Source: a virus (Duplodnaviria; Caudoviricetes). From it: a DNA stretch of 64,000 bases. Position 1 is the first letter of the stretch, and each line of letters starts with the position of its first letter. The notes under the pieces were generated by a model. It saw only the letters and a list, made by a program, of their open reading frames with translations, was not told where the DNA came from and did not search any database. The stretch lies in the IMG/VR virus record IMGVR_UViG_3300033068_001747; one strand, given 5' to 3'. Positions 17,190 to 61,500 of the stretch are shown piece after piece. The position numbers and the translations under genes are program-made.

Positions 17190-18032
17190 ATGGTAACAAG
17201 AGTAGCACCCTCTCCAACTGGTTTTTTCCACTTAGGAACTTTAAGAACTGCACTACTTGCTTGGCTTCAAGCAAGAGCTAATAACGGTACATTCATTTTA
17301 AGAATTGATGATACCGATCAAGAAAGAAATAAACCAGAGTGGATTGATTATATCTACGAGCAAATGTCTGAGTTTGGTTTAGATCACGACATTACTTTCA
17401 GACAATCTGAGAGATTAGACCGTTACAGAGAAGTAGCTGAGAAAATCGGTACTAAAACTGAGAATGGTTACGAGTTAGATATGGGAGAGTACTCAATGGT
17501 TATTCTTAGAAATAACGGGTTCCCTACATATAACTTCTGTTCAATTTTAGATGATTATGACTATGATGTAACTAATATCATTAGAGGTGTTGACCACATT
17601 GCAAATGAGGCAAAACAACGTATTATCTGGGATAAGATTTGTGAAGTAGAAGGAGATAAAACATTTCCAGTAATTACACATGCTGGATTACTTTTCGACG
17701 GTAATGCTAAATTATCTAAGAGAAAAGGTAATGGTACAACAGAAGATTACAAAGATTACAGTAGAGCTGCTATCTTAAACTGGTTGGTTAAATTTGGTTG
17801 GTCACACCCAGATCCATTGTTTGATAAGAAACACCCTACTTTAAGTATAGACGAAATGATTGCTCTTTTCAACGAAGGAAACATTTCAGATAGAAACTGT
17901 AAAATCGATAAAGCTAAATTAGAGTTCCTAAATAAAAAATGGAAAGCAATTGAGAAAAGAGGTGGTGCAGGTTCAACAAAAGAAATCGTAGTTGAGTCAA
18001 AACTTTTAAAGTTTGACGAGTTTCAAAAATAA
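17190..18032 (+). CDS. Glutamyl-tRNA synthetase-like protein, catalytic domain only (GluQ-sized)
   Basis: RVAPSPTGFFHLG, LRIDDTD, QSER, IRGVDH, KLSKR; 280 aa, no anticodon-binding domain. Confidence 0.88.
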   Translation: MVTRVAPSPTGFFHLGTLRTALLAWLQARANNGTFILRIDDTDQERNKPEWIDYIYEQMSEFGLDHDITFRQSERLDRYREVAEKIGTKTENGYELDMGEYSMVILRNNGFPTYNFCSILDDYDYDVTNIIRGVDHIANEAKQRIIWDKICEVEGDKTFPVITHAGLLFDGNAKLSKRKGNGTTEDYKDYSRAAILNWLVKFGWSHPDPLFDKKHPTLSIDEMIALFNEGNISDRNCKIDKAKLEFLNKKWKAIEKRGGAGSTKEIVVESKLLKFDEFQK

Positions 18033-18033
18033 T

Positions 18034-18066
18034 AAAAAAAGTCTTACATTTTTGTAAGACTTTTTT
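18034..18066. terminator. Bidirectional terminator
   Basis: gtcttaca-ttt-tgtaagac hairpin with A and T tracts. Confidence 0.7.
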
Positions 18067-18532
18067 ATTTTTTATATCTTTCTAAATCAAATTTTCCATA
18101 AACACGTTTTTCATCTAAATAAATCTTTATATCATAAATTAGTATTTTATTCATACTATATTCATATGGAAGATTTCTACCCAACCAGTCTTTAAACTTG
18201 TCATCATTCATATCATAATACTTAGATTCAACGTCACCATCATTATCAAGTGATCTTAAATCCAATAAACTATTCTTTAAATAATATGTCTGTTCTAAAT
18301 AATGATAGAAAGGAATAATATAATCTTTTATATTATTCCAATGTAATGGTTTTTTAAATGAGACTTTAACGTAAGTACCATAAACATGACTATTGTTGGT
18401 ACAAACTAATGAAACATTATCATCATCAAGTAAATAAGCTAAATGTTGTTCACAAAAATCTTGAAACTCTTCCTTAAATTGTTGTTTCATTTCTTGTTGA
18501 CTCTTAGCTTCAAACAATTTAATATACTTCAT
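18065..18532 (-). CDS. Hypothetical protein, LAYLLD family, N-terminal motif MKYIKLFE
   Basis: Paralog motifs; TAATATATA upstream. Confidence 0.7.
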   Translation of the reverse strand: MKYIKLFEAKSQQEMKQQFKEEFQDFCEQHLAYLLDDDNVSLVCTNNSHVYGTYVKVSFKKPLHWNNIKDYIIPFYHYLEQTYYLKNSLLDLRSLDNDGDVESKYYDMNDDKFKDWLGRNLPYEYSMNKILIYDIKIYLDEKRVYGKFDLERYKK

Positions 18533-18580
18533 AGTGTATATATTATTTATTTTATATATATTTGTAAAAATTTAGAAATC

Positions 18581-19225
18581 ATGAGTAAGTATAACAGAAC
18601 ATATCATTTACCTTGGTCACCTGGAACTACCAGTGATGATAGAATATCTAATAGTGTCGAATCACTATTGGGTACAGAGATTGTTATTACTGAAAAGTTG
18701 GATGGTGAAAATTGCGGAATGACAGATGAAGGAGTTTATGCCAGAAGTCATGCTACCTTTACAACGTCTCCTTGGTCAAGAGAAGTAAGACAACTTCATA
18801 AAGTTAAAGTAGAGAATATGTTAGGAGAAGGAGTTCTCTTATTTGGAGAAAATATGGAAGGTATTCACTCAATTGAATATAGTAATCTTGAGTCATACTT
18901 TTATATTTTCGGTGTTAGAGATAATGAAATTTGGATCCCGTGGGAACAAGTTGAAGAGTATTCTTACTTATTAGATATACCTACTGTACCAGTTTTATTT
19001 AAAGGTGTTGTAAACACAGTTAAAGAATTACAAGAAATTGTCGAAGATTTAGTAAGTAAACCTTCTGAATTAGGTGGACAAAGAGAAGGTATCGTAGTAA
19101 GAAATGCAGGAATGTTTCACAATGACGACTTTGCAGATAACGTAATGAAATGGGTAAGAAAGGGACACGTTCAAACAGATGAACATTGGACTAGAAATTG
19201 GAAGAAAGCCGAAATAAAAAGATAA
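18581..19225 (+). CDS. ATP-dependent RNA ligase family protein
   Basis: TEKLDGEN (motif I), FGEN, EGIVVR, KWVR; start MSKY at 18581. Confidence 0.85.
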   Translation: MSKYNRTYHLPWSPGTTSDDRISNSVESLLGTEIVITEKLDGENCGMTDEGVYARSHATFTTSPWSREVRQLHKVKVENMLGEGVLLFGENMEGIHSIEYSNLESYFYIFGVRDNEIWIPWEQVEEYSYLLDIPTVPVLFKGVVNTVKELQEIVEDLVSKPSELGGQREGIVVRNAGMFHNDDFADNVMKWVRKGHVQTDEHWTRNWKKAEIKR

Positions 19226-20275: not shown

Positions 20276-21181
20276 ATGAAGACAAATCTAAAAATTAAAA
20301 TACTTATCGGAGTACCTGCTTCCGGCAAATCTACGTGGGCCAAAGATTTTGTAAAAGCAAATGATAATTGGACCAGAGTTAGTAGAGACGACTTTAGAGA
20401 AATGTTAAAAAACTCTGGAGTTGTGGAAAATAAAGTTGAAAATATAATCAATGAATTGGTTGATGCAACAATAGAACAATCATTACTTAAAAAAATGAAT
20501 GTTATTGTCGATAACACAAATTTAAAAGATAAATATATTCAAAACATTATTGAGAAGTTTAAGTATAGTGCCGATATAGACTATCAAGTCTTTGATATAT
20601 CAAAGGACAAAGCGATAGAAAGAGACAGACAAAGAGATAAGTCTGTAGGTCCAGTTGTTATCAATAAAATGTATAAAGAATATAAAATTCTTATGGATTC
20701 ATTTGACTTTCAACCTGTCAAAAAAATGACAAGACCTCACTTGACCCCAAATTTCAACTCACCTAAACAAGGTGCTGTTATATTTGACATCGATGGTACA
20801 CTTGCACTTATGGGTCGTAGAGGTCCATTTGATTGGATGCAAGTTTATAAAGACGATTTGAACGAAATTGTATCGGAACAGTTACAATTTCATAAAGATA
20901 AAGGTAGAAAAGTAATTATTGTAACTGGTCGTGACGAAGTTTGTCGAGAAGTTACCGAAGAATGGTTAGACTTTCACGGTATTCAGTTTGACGAAATGTA
21001 TATGAGACCAAAAGATGATTATAGAAAAGATACCTTAATTAAAAAAGAAATATACGAAAATCATATTAAGCCAAATTATAACTTACTTTGTGTTTATGAT
21101 GATAGATTAAGTGTAGTTAGAACTTGGAATGAATTAGGAGTATTTGTATTTAATGTAAATCAAGGAACACATCAATTTTAA
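20276..21181 (+). CDS. pseT: Polynucleotide 5'-kinase/3'-phosphatase (T4 PseT-like)
   Basis: GVPASGKST P-loop, RDDFR, HAD motif DIDGTL, VTGR, DDR. Confidence 0.92.
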   Translation: MKTNLKIKILIGVPASGKSTWAKDFVKANDNWTRVSRDDFREMLKNSGVVENKVENIINELVDATIEQSLLKKMNVIVDNTNLKDKYIQNIIEKFKYSADIDYQVFDISKDKAIERDRQRDKSVGPVVINKMYKEYKILMDSFDFQPVKKMTRPHLTPNFNSPKQGAVIFDIDGTLALMGRRGPFDWMQVYKDDLNEIVSEQLQFHKDKGRKVIIVTGRDEVCREVTEEWLDFHGIQFDEMYMRPKDDYRKDTLIKKEIYENHIKPNYNLLCVYDDRLSVVRTWNELGVFVFNVNQGTHQF

Positions 21182-21248
21182 AGTAAGCAGAGAACCTATC
21201 GCTGGAAACAGAGGAAGTTCGCGACTACAAAACCTCATTACATATATA
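21180..21248 (+). ncRNA. rnpB: RNase P RNA, 5' segment (5' strands of P1, P2, P4, P5, P6 plus P3)
   Basis: GAGGAAGTTCGCGA CR-I-like motif; CTG-GAAA-CAG P3; complementary to the 25030-25177 segment. Confidence 0.8.
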
Positions 21249-21296
21249 TTAAAACTTTTAAACATAAAATAAATATATATTTTAAATAATAAAACT

Positions 21297-21704
21297 ATGT
21301 TATTAACTAAAAGCGTTGAATATGCTATTAAATCACTCATACTAATCAATTATGATAGTAAAATAAATATCGAATATATTAGTTCTAAACTAGATATACC
21401 TAGAAGTTTCACATCAAAAATATTACAAGTACTTGTAAAAAAGGACTACATCTCTTCTAAAAGAGGCCCAGGTGGTGGTTTTGTAGTAAATGATTATTCA
21501 AAAACATTAAAAGATTTAATATGTGATATTGATCATAAATTTGATTATGATAAATGTGTTATGGGATTAAGTGGCTGCTCTGATGAGAATGCTTGTCCTT
21601 TACATGAAAATTTCAAAGAAATTAAAAATAAAATTTTAAACGAATTAATGATATTAAAAATATCAGATATTTGTAAAAATCCAAATAAAGTTTTAAAACT
21701 ATAA
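21297..21704 (+). CDS. Rrf2 family transcriptional regulator
   Basis: SVEYAI, SKRGPGGGF, C-terminal Cys cluster. Confidence 0.9.
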   Translation: MLLTKSVEYAIKSLILINYDSKINIEYISSKLDIPRSFTSKILQVLVKKDYISSKRGPGGGFVVNDYSKTLKDLICDIDHKFDYDKCVMGLSGCSDENACPLHENFKEIKNKILNELMILKISDICKNPNKVLKL

Positions 21705-21779
21705 GAATATTTTTTATATATATAATAATTGTAGATATGAATGTCTTTTTATCTACAATTAAAAAAATTATATAAAACT

Positions 21780-23558
21780 ATGTTTACAAAATTAGATGAA
21801 TTACAAAAAAAGGTTAAAAAGGATTTTATAAAGAATTATATAAACTCCAAGAATGCAGCAAGTGGATCATTATTTGATCCAAATTCAAATGTTACTTCTA
21901 AAAATATTGCAACTTTAGAAGCAGAATTAAACAAAGATATTAACATACAAGTTAATAGGTCTCTTATCTATTCTAAAATAGAAGAAAATTTTGGAACAGA
22001 AATGGCAGACTCATATATTAAAGACATTGAAGACCACTTAATATATGTTCATGATGAGACATCATTGAAGCCATATTGTGTGAGTATCTCAATGTATCCG
22101 TTGTTATTAAATGGTTTAAGTGGCTTAGGTGGTGAGTCGAAAGCACCTAAACACTTAGCAAGCTTTTGTGGTTCATTTATTAACCTTTTATTCTCAGTGT
22201 CATCACAGTTCGCTGGTGCAGTAGCTACTGTGGAATTCTTACTTTACTTTGACCACTTTGCAAGATTAGATTATGGAGATGACTACTTAACAACACATAA
22301 AAAAATAATAGAGAATGAGTTACAACATGTAGTTTATGCTATTAACCAACCTGCCGCGGCAAGAGGTTATCAATCAGTATTTTGGAATATATCTTTATAT
22401 GATATTGAATATTTTAATTCAATGTTTGGTGACTTTGTTTTTCCTGATATGGATAAACCAAACTATAGTAGCTTAGATAAACTACAGAAGTTTTTCATGA
22501 AATGGTTTAATAAAGAAAGGGAAAATGCGGTATTAACATTCCCTGTAATCACAGCAGCTATGTTGACTAAAGATAAAAAAGTATATGATGTTAACTTTGG
22601 TAACTTTTGTGCAGAAGAGTTAAGTGAAGGTAATTCATTCTTTATATATCAATCAGAAAGTGCAGATTCATTAGCATCTTGTTGCAGACTAAGAAATGAA
22701 ATATCTGATAATACTTTTAGCTACTCTCTTGGTGCTGGTGGTGTATCCACTGGTTCTATAAATGTGATAACTATTAATATGAATAGACTTATTCAAAAAG
22801 ATATTAGTCTAGATGATTTATTAGATAGAATATATAAATATCAAATGTCATACCGATATTTAATACAGGATTACTTAGATGCTAAGATGTTACCTGTTTA
22901 TGATTCTGGTTTTATATCAATTGATAAACAATTTCTAACAATAGGTATAAATGGTATGGTTGAATCCGCAGAATATCTTGGAATTGAAATATCAGATAAT
23001 GATAAATATAAAGACTATATCAATAGTAGATTGAAAACAATATATGATAAAAATAAATTAGCAAAGATTGAATATGGTTGCATGTTTAATACTGAATTCG
23101 TCCCTGCTGAAAATTTAGGAGTAAAAAATGCTAAGTGGGACAAAGAAGATGGTCTATTCGTAACAAGAGACTGTTATAACTCATACTTTTATATAGTTGA
23201 GGACGAGTCACAGAATGTAGTAGATAAATTCTTTTTACATGGAAATGATTATATAAAATATCTAGATGGTGGTAGTGCATATCATTGTAATTTAGAAGAT
23301 TATCCTACAAAAGAAGGATTCTTTAAGCTATTAAATGTATCAGCTTATACTGGTTGTAATTATTTTTGCTTTAATATAAAAGTAACAATATGTAATGATT
23401 GTGAACATATAAATAAAAAGACTGAATACCATTGTGTGAAATGTGACAGTAGAAATGTAGATCACGCTACAAGAATAATAGGATATCTTAAAAGAATAAC
23501 TAGCTTCAGTAAAGATAGACAAAAAGAAGCAGCAAAAAGATATTACAATCAAAAATGA
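21780..23558 (+). CDS. nrdD: Anaerobic ribonucleoside-triphosphate reductase (class III)
   Basis: IYVHD, SCCRL, PAENL, CxxC...CxxC, TRIIGYL glycyl-radical motif. Confidence 0.93.
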   Translation: MFTKLDELQKKVKKDFIKNYINSKNAASGSLFDPNSNVTSKNIATLEAELNKDINIQVNRSLIYSKIEENFGTEMADSYIKDIEDHLIYVHDETSLKPYCVSISMYPLLLNGLSGLGGESKAPKHLASFCGSFINLLFSVSSQFAGAVATVEFLLYFDHFARLDYGDDYLTTHKKIIENELQHVVYAINQPAAARGYQSVFWNISLYDIEYFNSMFGDFVFPDMDKPNYSSLDKLQKFFMKWFNKERENAVLTFPVITAAMLTKDKKVYDVNFGNFCAEELSEGNSFFIYQSESADSLASCCRLRNEISDNTFSYSLGAGGVSTGSINVITINMNRLIQKDISLDDLLDRIYKYQMSYRYLIQDYLDAKMLPVYDSGFISIDKQFLTIGINGMVESAEYLGIEISDNDKYKDYINSRLKTIYDKNKLAKIEYGCMFNTEFVPAENLGVKNAKWDKEDGLFVTRDCYNSYFYIVEDESQNVVDKFFLHGNDYIKYLDGGSAYHCNLEDYPTKEGFFKLLNVSAYTGCNYFCFNIKVTICNDCEHINKKTEYHCVKCDSRNVDHATRIIGYLKRITSFSKDRQKEAAKRYYNQK

Positions 23559-24007
23559 GATTTAAAGAATATAATATAGTATTCCAAGAGATACCTAATG
23601 AGGTATCTCTTTGTTTCTCTATAACAGGTTGTAACCTAAGGTGTGATGGTTGTCACTCACCATTTTTATGGAAAATTAATAGCGGTGATTTATTAACAAT
23701 AGATGTATTAAATACACTTTTAAAAAAATATGATAAGATTATATCTTGTGTTCTTTTTATGGGTGGAGAATGGCACACTAAAGAGTTTATTAAAACATTA
23801 TCTTATATTAGAAGCATGGGTATAAAAACCGCTTTATATACAGGGTTAGAACTTGATGATGTTAGTGTGGATATTAGAAATAATTTAGACTATTTAAAGT
23901 TTGGACCTTGGATAAAAGAATTAGGTGGACTTCAATCAAAGACAACAAATCAAAAATTATTAAATATAAATAATGATGAGTGTTTAAATCACTATTTTAT
24001 TAAATAA
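23555..24007 (+). CDS. nrdG: Anaerobic RNR activase (radical SAM)
   Basis: GCNLRCDGCHS; adjacent to nrdD. Confidence 0.92.
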   Translation: MRFKEYNIVFQEIPNEVSLCFSITGCNLRCDGCHSPFLWKINSGDLLTIDVLNTLLKKYDKIISCVLFMGGEWHTKEFIKTLSYIRSMGIKTALYTGLELDDVSVDIRNNLDYLKFGPWIKELGGLQSKTTNQKLLNINNDECLNHYFIK

Positions 24008-24258
24008 ACTTTTTCAATATTAGATTATTTAAAGATTAAAATATAAATTAAATTATGACTTTTATAAATATCAGAAATTATTAACCACACTTATAATATG
24101 ATTCAAAGGATTTTGAACGATTAATGATGTTAGGAATAATCCAAATGGATTAGGTGGACAAGCTATGACAAGAACATAAACAATATTTTAAACATGAATA
24201 TTCTTTTATTCTAAAAGAAAAAATAACAATAGAGAGAACAACAAATGAATAAGATTTT

Positions 24259-24480
24259 ATGAAAGTAGTTTGTATAAAAAAATACCTATCTACCAATTTA
24301 AGATATGAACTTACTTATGGTAAAATATATGAAACTCTACCTAAGTTTCCTAATGATTTAGAAGATGATTATAGAATAGAGTGTGATAGAGGTTTTATAG
24401 AATTTTATAGTAAAGATACATTTATAACTTTAGAAGATTGGAGAGAACAACAAATAAATAAAATTGTAAATGAATATTAG
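24259..24480 (+). CDS. Small protein, V-x-CIK...LT-x-GK-x-Y family, C-terminal tag WREQQINKIV
   Basis: Similar to 26805, 59258 and 60715 ORFs. Confidence 0.65.
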   Translation: MKVVCIKKYLSTNLRYELTYGKIYETLPKFPNDLEDDYRIECDRGFIEFYSKDTFITLEDWREQQINKIVNEY

Positions 24481-24751
24481 ATGTATATTTGGACATAAAT
24501 GGGAACTTTCTAAAATAGAAAGAGAGATTGAATATAACTTACCTAAGCTTGGTAAAAAAGGTGCTTGGAATGGTTCAGGTAGAAAGGTTATTATGACTAC
24601 TTCTGATGATATTAGAATATGTAAAAGATGTTATAAGAAACAAAAGGCAATGTATAGTCCATTTAGTCATGTTAGAATTGCAGATTGGAGGAATGATGAA
24701 CTCAGTAAAGATGAACTTAGAGATAAAAAATTAAAAGAATTAGGTATATGA
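24470..24751 (+). CDS. Small zinc-binding protein, C-terminal tag LRDKKLKELGI
   Basis: CIFGHKW...CKRC. Confidence 0.65.
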   Translation: MNIRCIFGHKWELSKIEREIEYNLPKLGKKGAWNGSGRKVIMTTSDDIRICKRCYKKQKAMYSPFSHVRIADWRNDELSKDELRDKKLKELGI

Positions 24752-25014
24752 GTCTTAAATTAATAGCCAAAAAAACACATATTGTACGTAAAAACATTCA
24801 AGGTAATGGTAAAACTAGCCATATTATTGAAAAAGGTCAAATATTTACCATCTTTGTCAAACATATTACAAAGTATGACAAAGATGGTGAATTGGTGACT
24901 GTTTGTATATACCATATAAAAGATGGTTGGATTATAAATTTTAAAAACTTTACAACAAAGGAGAAATATACTGCAATCAAAAGACAACATATATTAGATC
25001 AAATATTAGGTTAA
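24748..25014 (+). CDS. Hypothetical protein, C-terminal tag KRQHILDQIL
   Basis: ORF track. Confidence 0.6.
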   Translation: MSLKLIAKKTHIVRKNIQGNGKTSHIIEKGQIFTIFVKHITKYDKDGELVTVCIYHIKDGWIINFKNFTTKEKYTAIKRQHILDQILG

Positions 25015-25029
25015 TAAATAAATAAAAAT

Positions 25030-25177
25030 TATATTTGTAACTTAGGAGACTAACGTCGTTTGTACTAAGGAAGTAGCAAGTCAAACAGTTCGAGGGTGTC
25101 GGTTTCCCTATGAGAATGGGTTGATGCAAAGATAAATGATAGGATAGAACAAAATCGCGGCTAAGCTCACTTACTTT
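25030..25177 (+). ncRNA. rnpB: RNase P RNA, 3' segment (P9-like hairpin, P15-P17, CR-IV, CR-V; no P18)
   Basis: GTAGCAAG, AGATAAATGAT and ACAAAATCGCGGCTAA match bacterial rnpB conserved regions; pairs with the 21180 segment. Confidence 0.8.
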
Positions 25178-25231
25178 TTAAATTAAAATAAACTTTCATA
25201 TTTTAAAAACTATACTTAAAAAAAACAACTT

Positions 25232-26296
25232 ATGTTAACAACTTTGCTAATTTTAGCTTTACTTGCAGTTTGTATCTTTGAATTTGTAAATGGATTTCAC
25301 GATACTGCTAATGCCGTTGCGACGGTAATTTACACAAAATCTTTAAAACCTAAACAAGCAGTTGTTTGGTCAGGAATTATGAACTTTCTTGGACTTATGA
25401 CTGGTGGTGTAGGTGTCGCACTTAGTATTGTAACACTAATACCCAAAGAACTAATCACTGATACTAACATATACCACTCTATGGGAATGGTTATGTCAAT
25501 TCTTATTACTGCAATTTTTTGGAATTTAGCAACTTGGTACAAAGGAATTCCTGCTTCTTCTTCACATACTTTAATCGGCTCAATAATTGGAGTTTCTGTA
25601 GGTTACTCTATTTTAACTGGTGTAGATTACACTAATTGGGGTAAAATTATTGATATAGGAAAAGCGTTAGCTTTCTCACCTTTATTAGGTTTCACTATGG
25701 TTATACTTTTAATGTGGTTTCTAAACAAAGTTATCAAAAGAAAAGATGTATTTGAAGAGCCAAATGGTGATACTCCACCACCAACTTGGATTAGAGCGAC
25801 TTTAATTTCAACTTGTACATTAGTTTCATTTTTTCACGGAAGAAATGACGGTCAAAAAGGAATTGGTTTAGCAATGATTATACTTATGGCTTTCTTACCT
25901 ACTTACTTTACATTAGAAACTGTTGAAAATCCACCAATGTGGGTTATGTGGATGATTGCTACGTCATTAGGATTAGGAACAATGATTGGTTGGAAAAGAA
26001 TTGTAGTTACAATTGGAGAGAAAATTGGTAAACAACACTTAACTTATGCACAAGGTGCTTCTTCTGAATTAGTTGCTGCAATCACAATTGGATTATCAAC
26101 TGCATTTAAACTACCAGTATCAACAACACACATTCTAAGTTCTGGTATTGCAGGGTCAATGGTGGCATCAAAAGGAATAAATAATTTAAAAACTAAAACA
26201 ATTAAAACAATATTATCCGCTTGGATTCTTACGTTACCAGTAACAATTGTGGTATCATGTGGATTATTTCTATTATTTAGATATATTTCAGGATAA
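25232..26296 (+). CDS. pit: Inorganic phosphate transporter (PiT family)
   Basis: NGFHDTANAVAT, GIPASSSHTLIG, HGRNDGQK, PVSTTH. Confidence 0.93.
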   Translation: MLTTLLILALLAVCIFEFVNGFHDTANAVATVIYTKSLKPKQAVVWSGIMNFLGLMTGGVGVALSIVTLIPKELITDTNIYHSMGMVMSILITAIFWNLATWYKGIPASSSHTLIGSIIGVSVGYSILTGVDYTNWGKIIDIGKALAFSPLLGFTMVILLMWFLNKVIKRKDVFEEPNGDTPPPTWIRATLISTCTLVSFFHGRNDGQKGIGLAMIILMAFLPTYFTLETVENPPMWVMWMIATSLGLGTMIGWKRIVVTIGEKIGKQHLTYAQGASSELVAAITIGLSTAFKLPVSTTHILSSGIAGSMVASKGINNLKTKTIKTILSAWILTLPVTIVVSCGLFLLFRYISG

Positions 26297-27180: not shown

Positions 27181-27268
27181 AATTAAATTTTCATAGAAAT
27201 TTTGAAAAATAATTGAAAAAAGATTTGGTAGATTAAAAAAGTCACCGTATCTTTGTCAAACAAAATAA

Positions 27269-27355
27269 GGGAAGATATACAAGTCTGGTCAAAGTAGGCT
27301 ACCGGTGAGGTAGTCGGTTTTATATCTTCGAGCGGTTCGAATCCCTCTCTTCCCA
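27269..27355 (+). tRNA. Atypical tRNA with long variable region and non-canonical anticodon loop
   Basis: GGGAAGA/TCTTCCC + A; GGCTACC-GGTGA-GGTAGTC arm; GGTTCGAATCC. Confidence 0.65.
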
Positions 27356-27535
27356 CAAAAAAAATTTTAAAAAAGATTTGGTAGATTAAAGAATACTCCT
27401 TATCTTTGTCAAACAAAATACGAGTTATGAGTTGTGGCTCGAAGATTAAACCAAAACTCAAAAAAAATTAAAAAAAGTTAAAAAAGATTTGGTAGATTAA
27501 AAAAGTCTTCTTATCTTTGTCAAACAAAATAAAAA

Positions 27536-27619
27536 TGTGTGTTACCGGAGTTATGAGTTAGAATACAACTTGTAAGTATAGACGGGCTGCTGATGAAGTT
27601 GGTCCGCTCCCTAACCACA
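27536..27619 (+). ncRNA. Candidate structured small RNA
   Basis: After a promoter repeat; TGTG..GTTA..GGAG / CTCC.TAAC.CACA closing helix with internal hairpins. Confidence 0.45.
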
Positions 27620-27627
27620 AAAAATCT

Positions 27628-27738
27628 GGTCTGTTCGTCTAGCGGATGTCACTTCGGTGATAGGACGACACTTCTACGCTTAAATGTGCCCTGGTATATG
27701 GAGAGGTGTAAACAAAGGTTCGAATCCTTTACAGACTA
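27628..27738 (+). tRNA. tRNA-Glu-like RNA copy 1 (D-loop hairpin, 26-nt anticodon-loop expansion)
   Basis: GGTCTGT/ACAGACT acceptor; TCAC-TTCG-GTGA in D-loop; ACACTTCT/AGAGGTGT stem. Confidence 0.75.
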
Positions 27739-27858
27739 CAAAAAAAAATGAAAAAAGATTTGGTAGATTAAAAAAGTCTTCGTATCTTTGTCAAACAAAA
27801 TAAGAGTAGGTGTCTTGTGAAATTCTTGACTTCTTGGTGTACGATAGCACAACTCTTC

Positions 27859-27945
27859 GGTCTGTTCGTCTAGCGGTGTCACTTCGGTGACTAGGACAAC
27901 TTCCCTTTCAGGAAGGAAACGCGGGTTCGAATCCCGTACAGACTA
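27859..27945 (+). tRNA. tRNA-Glu-like RNA copy 2 (UUC in a 6-nt loop)
   Basis: Same body; CTTCC-CTTTCA-GGAAG anticodon arm. Confidence 0.8.
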
Positions 27946-28007
27946 CTGCTTTAATGGAATTTTAAGCTTGAGTTTTGTGATGGAACTCTTTAAAGAACTA
28001 TCACATC

Positions 28008-28096
28008 GGTCTGTTCGTCTAGCGGTTCACTTCGGTGATAGGACAACTTTTCAGTGAGTGATGAAGTAAACGCGGGTTCGAATCCCGTACAGACTA
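28008..28096 (+). tRNA. tRNA-Glu-like RNA copy 3 (extended anticodon arm, loop GTGAG)
   Basis: Same body; ACTTTTCA-GTGAG-TGATGAAGT arm. Confidence 0.75.
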
Positions 28097-28161
28097 CAAA
28101 TAAAATATAGGTGGTTACACGCCAGTAATGGTGTGTGTATCAAAGAGGTAAGCCACTTATC

Positions 28162-28249
28162 GGTCTGTTCGTCTAGCGGATGTCACTTCGGTGACTAGGA
28201 CATCTTCTCTTCGGAGTTGGGAACGCAGGTTCGAATCCTGTACAGACTA
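28162..28249 (+). tRNA. tRNA-Glu-like RNA copy 4 (anticodon loop replaced by a cUUCGg tetraloop)
   Basis: Same body; CTC-TTCG-GAG. Confidence 0.75.
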
Positions 28250-28266
28250 CAACAAATAAAACATAT

Positions 28267-28339
28267 CGCGGGATAGAGCAGTAGGCAGCTCGCAAGGCTC
28301 ATAACCTTGAGGTCACAGGTTCGAGTCCTGTTCCCGCTA
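28267..28339 (+). tRNA. tRNA-fMet (CAU)
   Basis: C1:U72 mismatch, CAAGG-CTCATAA-CCTTG, canonical D and T arms. Confidence 0.9.
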
Positions 28340-28421
28340 CTAAGTGTAAATGTCATTCTGTAATGTTGACAAGTTGGTACTTTTAGTATCCATCTTTAGT
28401 GTAATTAAAACACGACACTTC

Positions 28422-28534
28422 GGTCTGTTCGTCTAGTGGACGTTTACTGAACACAAAGCTTCGGCATTAAAGTAAAGTAAACAGGACTTCTCCCTTAGAA
28501 GGAGACAACGCGGGTTCGAATCCCGTACAGACTA
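28422..28534 (+). tRNA. tRNA-Glu-like RNA copy 5 with UAG (Leu) anticodon and ~40-nt D-loop insertion
   Basis: Same acceptor and T arm; TCTCC-CTTAGAA-GGAGA; GTTTACT...AGTAAAC inserted helix. Confidence 0.75.
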
Positions 28535-28554
28535 CAATGCTTGGTCGCCAGGTA

Positions 28555-28720: not shown

Positions 28721-29560
28721 ATTGTATTATCCAACTAGTCACTTCGGTGGTTAGTAAAATGATAATCGGCGGTGTATCGTCGTTAAATAAACTACGAAAG
28801 TAGGATAAAGTGGAATCAACGTTAAATGGTTCTGCGGCTCGTAAGAGCTCGAGTACACAAGTGGGATATCCAACGTCCTGATTAACCGAGGGCTTACGCT
28901 GTAGGTGAAATGGAATTTGGACTTGGCAATGTGGATTGTCGAGTTGATGTGGGAACACCAATAAGAATAACCCATAGGAACTCTGTAAGAAAGGTAGCTC
29001 CAACTATCTGATTGCGGGTTCCAATATAAAAGGCAACTTAAAACCGAAAGGTAAGGTAGAGAACAGGTGGTGCTGCTACTATCCCTACTAAATGTCTACC
29101 AAGACGTTAGTTTGAAGTTTTCTTGAAGTATGGAGGCTGGGAGGCTTCACGAAGGAGTTTAGTATTTCGTTGTTCAAAAGATAACGAAGCTTACGACAGA
29201 CCACTTCTTCGACACATCCACGAACACAAAAGCAATTTACATTTGAAGTAAAATTTAAACATAAAAAGCGAAAGTGTCTGTCAGGTTTCAACGAAAGTTG
29301 ACTACATACTTAGGAGCTGTTCCTAGGACGTCAAGACCGCAAGTTAAGACGTATTCTTGCCAAAAACCTCTAAGGGGTCGAACCCTTAATCAGACCGCAA
29401 GTTTGAAGAGAGTTGAGTAATAAGAGAGTAGTTGAAACCTCAAGAAGTGATTAGTCTAACTAATCGTCAATGAGAATTACAATCCAAAAGATTGTGGATA
29501 CGAAGAGAAACAATAATTCTTCAAAAGATTCTTACAAGATGGCATAATCTCAGCCTATTA
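28720..29560 (+). ncRNA. Large (~850 nt) structured ncRNA, GOLLD-like candidate
   Basis: Raised GC; no credible ORF; many GNRA/UUCG-capped hairpins; follows a tRNA cluster and boxA; terminator after. Confidence 0.65.
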
Positions 29561-61269: not shown

Positions 61270-61500
61270 ATGGACAGACATAGTTTATTACAAGAATTTC
61301 CAGAGTATCAGGATAAAATTCACCAAATGAAAACAGAAAATAACCACTTTAGAAAATTATTTGATGGTTACCACGAGTTAGAGCACAATATACATAGAAT
61401 CAAATCTGGTGCAGAAGTTACAACAGATGAAGAATTAAATAAATTAAAAATTCAATTACTTCAACACAAAGATGAATTATTTGAGATGTTAAAATCTTAA
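61270..61500 (+). CDS. YdcH/DUF465 family protein
   Basis: EFPEY..KIH..K..N.HF.KLFD.YHEL...LK...L..KDEL. Confidence 0.8.
   Translation: MDRHSLLQEFPEYQDKIHQMKTENNHFRKLFDGYHELEHNIHRIKSGAEVTTDEELNKLKIQLLQHKDELFEMLKS

Follow-up and report, generated by a model that had tools for sequence, protein, structure and literature searches.

The DNA analysed here is a 64,000-nucleotide stretch (the window, to which all unlabelled positions refer) of the Caudoviricetes record IMGVR_UViG_3300033068_001747, and it carries a gene for a small ribonuclease P (RNase P) RNA in two separated parts. Our results show that the locus is a phage copy of a mini RNase P RNA of about 195 nt, consisting of a catalytic domain (C-domain) with helices P1-P6 and P15-P17 and the conserved regions CR-I, CR-IV and CR-V. 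We regard it as practically certain that this gene was split by a recent, base-precise insertion of a protein-coding cassette. As to the consequence, the outcome that we rate as most likely, with a probability of roughly 0.55, is a ribozyme put out of action or severely impaired by the insertion. An earlier interpretation made from the letters of this DNA (the sequence-only reading) had not weighed this outcome. The parts of the locus and the helices of the RNA are:

21180..21235, + strand: 5' piece of the mini RNase P-like RNA, 56 nt
21236..25038, + strand: inserted cassette, 3,803 bp, with Rrf2, NrdD, NrdG and three small open reading frames (ORFs)
25039..25177, + strand: 3' piece of the mini RNase P-like RNA, 139 nt
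21180-87/25170-77: P1
21195-200/25138-43: P2
21202-11: P3
21217-24/25155-61: P4
21225-28/25073-76: P5
21230-34/25101-05: P6
25093-96/25106-09: P17
25080-84/25121-25: P15
25041-45/25065-69 (outer) and 25048-50/25055-57 (inner): stub stems, placed by covariation

The two pieces, 21180-21235 and 25039-25177, make up one RNA gene of 195 nt. The 5' piece contains the P3 hairpin, CR-I and the 5' strands of P1, P2, P4 (with its bulged U), P5 and P6. The 3' piece begins with the stub of the specificity domain (S-domain; 25041-25069) and continues with the 3' strand of P5, J5/15, P15-P16-P17 with the 3' strand of P6 in the loop, the GGGU of L15 (25118-21), CR-IV (25130-38), the 3' strand of P2, CR-V together with the 3' strand of P4 (25146-62) and, finally, the 3' strand of P1. 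The S-domain itself (P7-P14, CR-II/III) is replaced by this 29-nt, two-stem stub (25041-69), and the Rfam alignment passes over about 150 model positions at this point. A single-stranded linker of 3 nt connects the 5' strand of P6 to the stub, and this linker is the insertion site.

The sequence-only reading had proposed that two segments rebuild the catalytic core of an RNase P RNA. In support of this, the joined pieces (195 nt) align without gaps to one-piece relatives, at 96-98% identity. Each of the helices that it had named (P1-P6, P15 and P17) is present where it had placed it, and covariation in 28 homologs excludes chance matches; the CR-I, CR-IV and CR-V elements that it had recognised all align to E. 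coli rnpB. It was also right that P18 and most of the S-domain are absent, since the RNA belongs to a subgroup without P18 and has just the 29-nt stub. Its TTAG-GAGA-CTAA GNRA hairpin has to be given up, as this is not a conserved fold and covariation favours the two stub stems instead.

The one-piece relatives were found in several ways. A blastn search with the 3' segment led to huge-phage records, where contiguous RNAs of about 220 nt hold both segments. Scanning IMG/VR with the CR-I/P4 word that these RNAs share gave about 30 true homologs, mostly on contigs of 100-490 kb, and a metagenome scan gave 20 further ones, so that one-piece homologs are known from about 50 contigs in all. Alignment A1 comprises 28 one-piece members. 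Its helices (P1, P2, P3, P5, the two-stem stub, P15, P16, P17 and the P4 and P6 pseudoknots) are 92.7% paired, compared to 29-47% with the partners slid, and compensatory change is seen at 41 of the 55 pairs. Both the contiguous versions in related phages and the covariation on which the sequence-only reading had staked its proposal do therefore exist. P4 (helix 4) is 99.6% paired, with three compensatory pairs and an unpaired U between the paired columns 60 and 62. For the P6 pseudoknot, which joins J5/7 to the P17 loop, helices 6 and 7 are 89-93% paired and compensatory change is present at 4 of 5 pairs. The columns of CR-IV (AGAURAAUG) and of the GCAA in J5/15 are invariant or nearly so; P15 covaries, and the GGU of L15, the predicted site for the 3'-CCA of transfer RNA (tRNA), is invariant (G142 G143 T144 in A1).

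We then used a family covariance model (R1), with which the two pieces were scored separately, the joined pieces being aligned by script. The 3' piece scored 116.7 bits (E 4e-31) and the 5' piece 19 bits (E 1e-3). In the window R1 gave no full-length one-piece match, just these two matches 3.8 kb apart, and no second copy of the RNA in the whole 64 kb, where a 12.7-bit match at 61497 lacks the conserved motifs. Exactly one copy is present in each of four near-complete huge-phage genomes. In the relatives, identity in the RNA is 96-100% versus 83-92% in the flanks, and the RNA is under strong purifying selection there.

At the Rfam gathering thresholds (100 bits for RF00010, 84 bits for RF00373) no RNase P match was obtained in the window, and RF00010 did not match the records of the one-piece relatives. 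With relaxed thresholds, the sole RNase P match in the window was that of the 3' segment to RNaseP_arch (14.9 bits, E 0.3). The one-piece relative L071 aligned to the same model (RF00373) end to end, with the S-domain skipped, at 17.9 bits and E 0.0019 (gathering score 84). Alignment to E. coli rnpB (L143) matched CR-I (rnpB positions 61-82), CR-IV and CR-V. Judged by these comparisons, the family is an RNase P catalytic domain with a vestigial S-domain that falls by score in no Rfam family. In our literature search no paper described RNase P RNA genes that are phage-encoded or split, and no natural gene for this RNA that is split by coding DNA came up.

Two side observations concern this family. 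In L031 (3178-3545), and also in L015, L147, L149, L150, L159 and L166, the stub hairpin is enlarged by 20-130 nt between GGAGA and CGUU; the stub hairpin is a second permissive site for RNA growth. Also, a 476-kb record that carries the mini RNase P RNA has an RnpA-like ORF (G007:C1:440379-440669, - strand; PF00825, 49 bits). Note that IMG/VR flags this record as a provirus, so the RnpA-like gene may be host DNA; no such ORF was found in three other huge-phage genomes.

The genes within the insertion and on both sides of the RNA are:

20276..21181, + strand: PNKP (polynucleotide kinase/phosphatase), Pfam PF25109 (2.9e-42) and PF13671
21297..21704, + strand: Rrf2-family regulator, Pfam PF02082 (1.1e-18)
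21741..23558, + strand: NrdD, anaerobic ribonucleotide reductase, Pfam PF13597 (2.2e-103)
23555..24007, + strand: NrdG-like radical-SAM activase, Pfam PF13353; phrog_626 (anaerobic ribonucleotide reductase small subunit)
24259..25014, + strand: three small ORFs of no family (24259-24480, 24470-24751, 24748-25014)
25232..26296, + strand: PitA/PHO4 phosphate transporter, Pfam PF01384 (1.9e-78)

Pfam thus confirmed the genes of the + strand rrf2-nrdD-nrdG operon that had been proposed to lie between the halves. The insert is nearly all coding, its non-coding ends measuring 61 and 24 nt, and its base composition is not distinct from that of the flanks. The TAA stop of PNKP (21179-21181) overlaps the first two bases of P1, and PitA/PHO4 starts 54 nt past the 3' segment. 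PNKP is also found upstream of the one-piece RNA in L068, L071, L160 and L165, and PitA/PHO4 is the downstream neighbour in unsplit relatives too; the PNKP-RNA-PitA synteny of the closest subgroup, an order shared by several one-piece relatives, therefore holds for the window.

In six collinear relatives (L068, L071, L078, L148, L160 and L165; flanks 83-92% identical) the equivalents of 21235 and 25038/39 are adjacent, and the 5' piece is identical to those of L071 and L078 (55/55). The unsplit gene reads AAAACCTAACTTAGG at the site. The window reads AAAACCT, followed by the 3,803-bp insert and then by AACTTAGG, with zero RNA bases lost; the split allele can be told by TTTGTAACTTAGG. The cassette ends are uncertain by 1-2 nt owing to microhomology with the unsplit gene (CT on the left, TA on the right), and past this microhomology no target-site duplication is present. 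Both junctions were recovered at 100% identity in separate Logan assemblies (L124 and L140 from SRR32380204; L126 and L144 from ERR7338886), and the split strain is present in at least two independent runs besides the record of the window. In the viral contig collection the split junction pattern, an unsplit junction of the window type and a close relative of Rrf2 were all absent. NrdD was not found in the records of the relatives, which are fragmentary, and none of the about 50 other family members has a split of the window type.

Several ways to account for the insert were rejected. An intron is not supported, since neither Intron_gpI nor Intron_gpII matched in 21100-25300 at E up to 10, nor was there a group I/II match in two other interrupted family members (L079 and L100, described below). 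A transposon, an insertion sequence or a homing-endonuclease insertion was discarded because Pfam and PHROGs identified no transposase or endonuclease gene in the insert and the inverted repeat at its ends is no better than chance. This repeat is the 10/11-bp helix by which the sequence-only reading closed the insert. The helix exists; a structural role for it does not stand, because a helix of this kind is expected by chance in 9-16% of comparable AT-rich end pairs (P 0.09-0.16) and both its arms belong to the cassette in another genome context. For the same reasons we rejected it as an adaptation to the split.

That other context (context B) was found in L123, L125, L127-L139, L141 and L142. 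The homology between these contigs and the window runs exactly from 21234 to 25039, at 99-100% identity, and L128 is 100% identical to the window over 3,051 nt. The neighbourhood consists of small ORFs, without PNKP, PitA or an RNA half. L127 and L134, which come from one run, carry the whole block in this context, and the exact Rrf2 protein and the exact product of the 88-aa ORF are encoded on many other contigs there. The cassette, present with the same ends and at 99-100% identity in an unrelated gene context, is therefore a discrete module exchanged between phages, and its insertion must be very recent. In addition, the sub-cassette 24232-25039 (the small ORFs) stands alone in some context-B contigs, with or without Rrf2-NrdDG. 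Elements of 45-115 nt upstream of the small ORFs (24189-24480 in the window, 5881-5953 in L123, and in L130-L133) recur at the boundaries of context-B modules, which looks like modular shuffling at repeated intergenic elements. Finally, contig L145 (run ERR14173710) starts exactly at 25038, the first base common to the split and unsplit forms, a hint that both alleles coexist in one sample.

With respect to expression, all genes from PNKP through PitA are on the + strand and no intergenic terminator-like site was predicted between them, as the sequence-only reading had stated; the sole terminator-like hairpin inside the insert is within nrdG. Consensus scans for promoters and terminators gave counts within the range of shuffled sequence. 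The promoter element proposed at 25030 is accordingly unsupported, promoter-like sites being no commoner than in shuffled sequence. RNAcofold of the two halves, which considers nested pairs and is blind to pseudoknots, gave a ddG (energy difference) of -6.5 kcal/mol; a shuffled 5' piece did at least as well.

Insertions of other kinds were observed in two further sets of family members. In L079 (2600-3530, - strand), which belongs to genome G004 (435,856 bp, direct terminal repeats), a 199-aa SegE-like GIY-YIG ORF interrupts the sole copy of the mini RNase P gene. The ORF is placed directly after the 5' strand of P4, and 11 nt of the unsplit relative G006 (the 5' strands of P5 and P6) are replaced; the gene lies in a tRNA array, beside a weak match to transfer-messenger RNA (22 bits, gathering score 47). 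In L100 (12850-13800, - strand; identical in L115, L168 and L169) a 206-aa GIY-YIG (LEM-3-like) ORF occupies the P18 site. No core RNA element is lost, and the ORF ends in a stop codon that overlaps CR-IV. Together with the window, these loci show that foreign DNA has landed repeatedly in this apparently undescribed ribozyme gene of phages: this cassette, and GIY-YIG genes in two other phages.

The sequence of events was as follows. Relatives have the RNA gene in one piece between PNKP and PitA, and in this strain the 3,803-bp cassette entered the 3-nt linker between the 5' strand of P6 and the stub without the loss of an RNA base. Because the cassette is 99-100% identical elsewhere and the junctions share only 1-2 nt, this was a very recent event of illegitimate recombination or break repair between co-occurring phages, and not an evolved bipartite design. 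We infer the consequence as follows. The insertion would disable or badly weaken the ribozyme; the strain would get by on host RNase P, and a gain in anaerobic synthesis of deoxynucleotides may offset the loss. Both halves would still look intact because there has been no time for decay. In agreement with this, every base of the RNA in the window also occurs in unsplit relatives, the only private base being in the PNKP stop codon. The compensatory changes in P4 and P5, which had been taken as an argument against decay, predate the split: they were inherited from the one-piece relatives and are therefore silent on decay since then. Moreover, the other interrupted members (L079/L182 and L100/L115/L168/L169, with GIY-YIG ORFs) were seen only as identical copies, and no diverged phages that keep a GIY-YIG-interrupted or otherwise interrupted RNA gene were found, which suggests that interrupted alleles do not last.

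Several points weigh against a disabled ribozyme, and they are best considered together with the possibility that the split ribozyme still works, a serious alternative to which we give less than even odds. In that case a read-through PNKP-PitA transcript would carry both halves 3.8 kb apart, and the RNA might stay on this single molecule as a chimera of ribozyme and messenger RNA (mRNA), the operon looping out at the domain hinge as a giant peripheral element, or might become a two-piece enzyme once the mRNA part has been cut off; the halves would pair via P1, P2, P4, P5 and P6, about 30 bp. A single-stranded hinge as the site of insertion, with zero RNA bases removed, is the pattern to expect if insertions survive only where they spare the function. 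All the genes run in one direction and no terminator-like site lies between them, so both halves could share a transcript. The RNA is under strong selection in the relatives and is single-copy in the four near-complete genomes, so its loss should cost something, and the split strain recurs in several data sets. The complete 436-kb genome G004 has no copy besides the one with a GIY-YIG ORF in it, and the ORF of L100, at the variable P18 site, leaves every RNA element in place. RNase P activity reconstituted from fragments also has precedents (PMC3790967, PMC6783828). However, no adaptation to the split is seen: the closing helix is cassette-borne and at chance level, and the cassette has the same ends as in context B. 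The event is too recent for conservation to serve as evidence, and the intervening RNA is a translated mRNA, likely short-lived. No diverged lineage retains an interruption, none of the about 50 other members shares the split of the window, 11 nt of the core were apparently replaced in L079, and the cofolding, which ignores pseudoknots, did no better than its shuffled controls. The case that the sequence-only reading had made for a working or evolved split arrangement is not supported.

Two other explanations leave the ribozyme or its gene whole. The insert might be removed at the RNA level, either because it is an intron that escaped recognition or because an endonuclease cuts it out and the adjacent PNKP and RNA ligase heal and seal the ends, which would restore the contiguous 195-nt RNA. 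We consider this conjecture very improbable. PNKP does lie directly upstream, an RNA ligase gene (PF09414; L124 3285-3929, that is 18581-19225 in the window) lies about 2 kb upstream, and the insertion is base-precise; yet the intron models gave no match over the interval and E range given above, just 61 and 24 nt at the insert ends are non-coding, the same cassette is found in a non-RNA context in other phages, and PNKP is adjacent to the RNA in unsplit relatives as well. Less credible still is a chimeric assembly. Repeats shared between genomes, such as the cassette, can mislead assemblers, but the data do not bear out an artefact at the junctions, a danger that the sequence-only reading had itself raised: apart from the record of the window, both junctions were reproduced at 100% identity in the assemblies of two runs (L124/L140 and L126/L144), and the microhomology is just 1-2 nt. 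A recent insertion that is somewhat more likely than not to have disabled or badly weakened the ribozyme remains our preferred reading.

Additional features surround the locus. Just upstream of PNKP, 17190-19225 holds a truncated GluRS-like gene (PF00749, 280 aa) and the RNA ligase gene (PF09414), both read from the gene calls of L124, which is 100% identical there. With PNKP and the ribozyme gene, these two make up a neighbourhood for the repair and processing of tRNA. On the other side, a full-length GOLLD RNA (29150-29556, + strand; Rfam RF02032, 324 bits, E 5e-92) lies about 4 kb downstream of the split gene, after a tRNA-Met gene (28267-28340) and a series of tRNA-like repeats. Tandem repeats of 60-130 nt (27200-28540) recur at 80-98% identity in L078 and L160. 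Earlier notes call them tRNA-Glu-like RNAs with promoter cassettes; in the whole window ARAGORN identified no tRNA genes other than tRNA-Met and tRNA-Cys.

Two ribozymes occur in every domain of life, and RNase P RNA is one of them. The one-piece relatives differ from the RNA of the window at 4-8 of 195 positions, which makes a clean matched pair for studying whether a break or a huge insertion is tolerated in vivo at the hinge between the C- and S-domains. If the split RNA works, the locus is a natural test of the backbone continuity that RNase P needs in vivo. If it is dead, the phage has only very recently lost its own RNase P, and this dated loss is relevant to the dispensability of such RNAs. 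In either case, an Rrf2-NrdDG metabolic cassette has been caught moving between phages at base-level resolution.

Finally, we compared the locus with known systems. With bacterial type A RNase P RNA (E. coli M1/rnpB, RF00010) the phage RNA shares CR-I, CR-IV and CR-V, the bulged U of P4, the order P1-P3, the P6 pseudoknot into the P17 loop, and P15 with GGU in L15. It differs from type A in its length (195 nt versus 377 nt), in the reduction of P7-P14 to a 29-nt stub and in belonging to a subgroup without P18, and the gene in the window differs in being phage-encoded and split by 3.8 kb. Free-standing GIY-YIG (Seg-like) homing endonuclease genes, and ORFs in the loops of group I/II intron ribozymes, are known cases of coding DNA in or beside structured RNA genes, and L079 and L100 do carry GIY-YIG ORFs; the insert in the window, in contrast, is a metabolic cassette without an endonuclease or an intron core. 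The type T RNase P RNA of Thermoproteaceae, which is archaeal and cellular, is also a natural RNase P RNA of about 200 nt that has lost nearly its whole S-domain (PMC3579882), a near-total loss shared with the phage RNA; it differs in working with archaeal proteins and in having a contiguous gene (PMC3579882). Among natural RNAs, the yeast mitochondrial RNase P RNA (RPM1) comes closest to a two-piece RNase P RNA: two fragments of about 70 nt from its ends are enough for in vitro activity (reviewed in PMC3790967). Its fragments, however, come from a contiguous gene through RNA breakage, with no coding DNA between them, and a large protein partner is needed. Bacterial RNase P ribozymes have also been engineered in two pieces, which assemble non-covalently and are active (PMC6783828). 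These bimolecular ribozymes are laboratory designs whose cut parts the S-domain from the C-domain, whereas the split in the window divides the C-domain itself.

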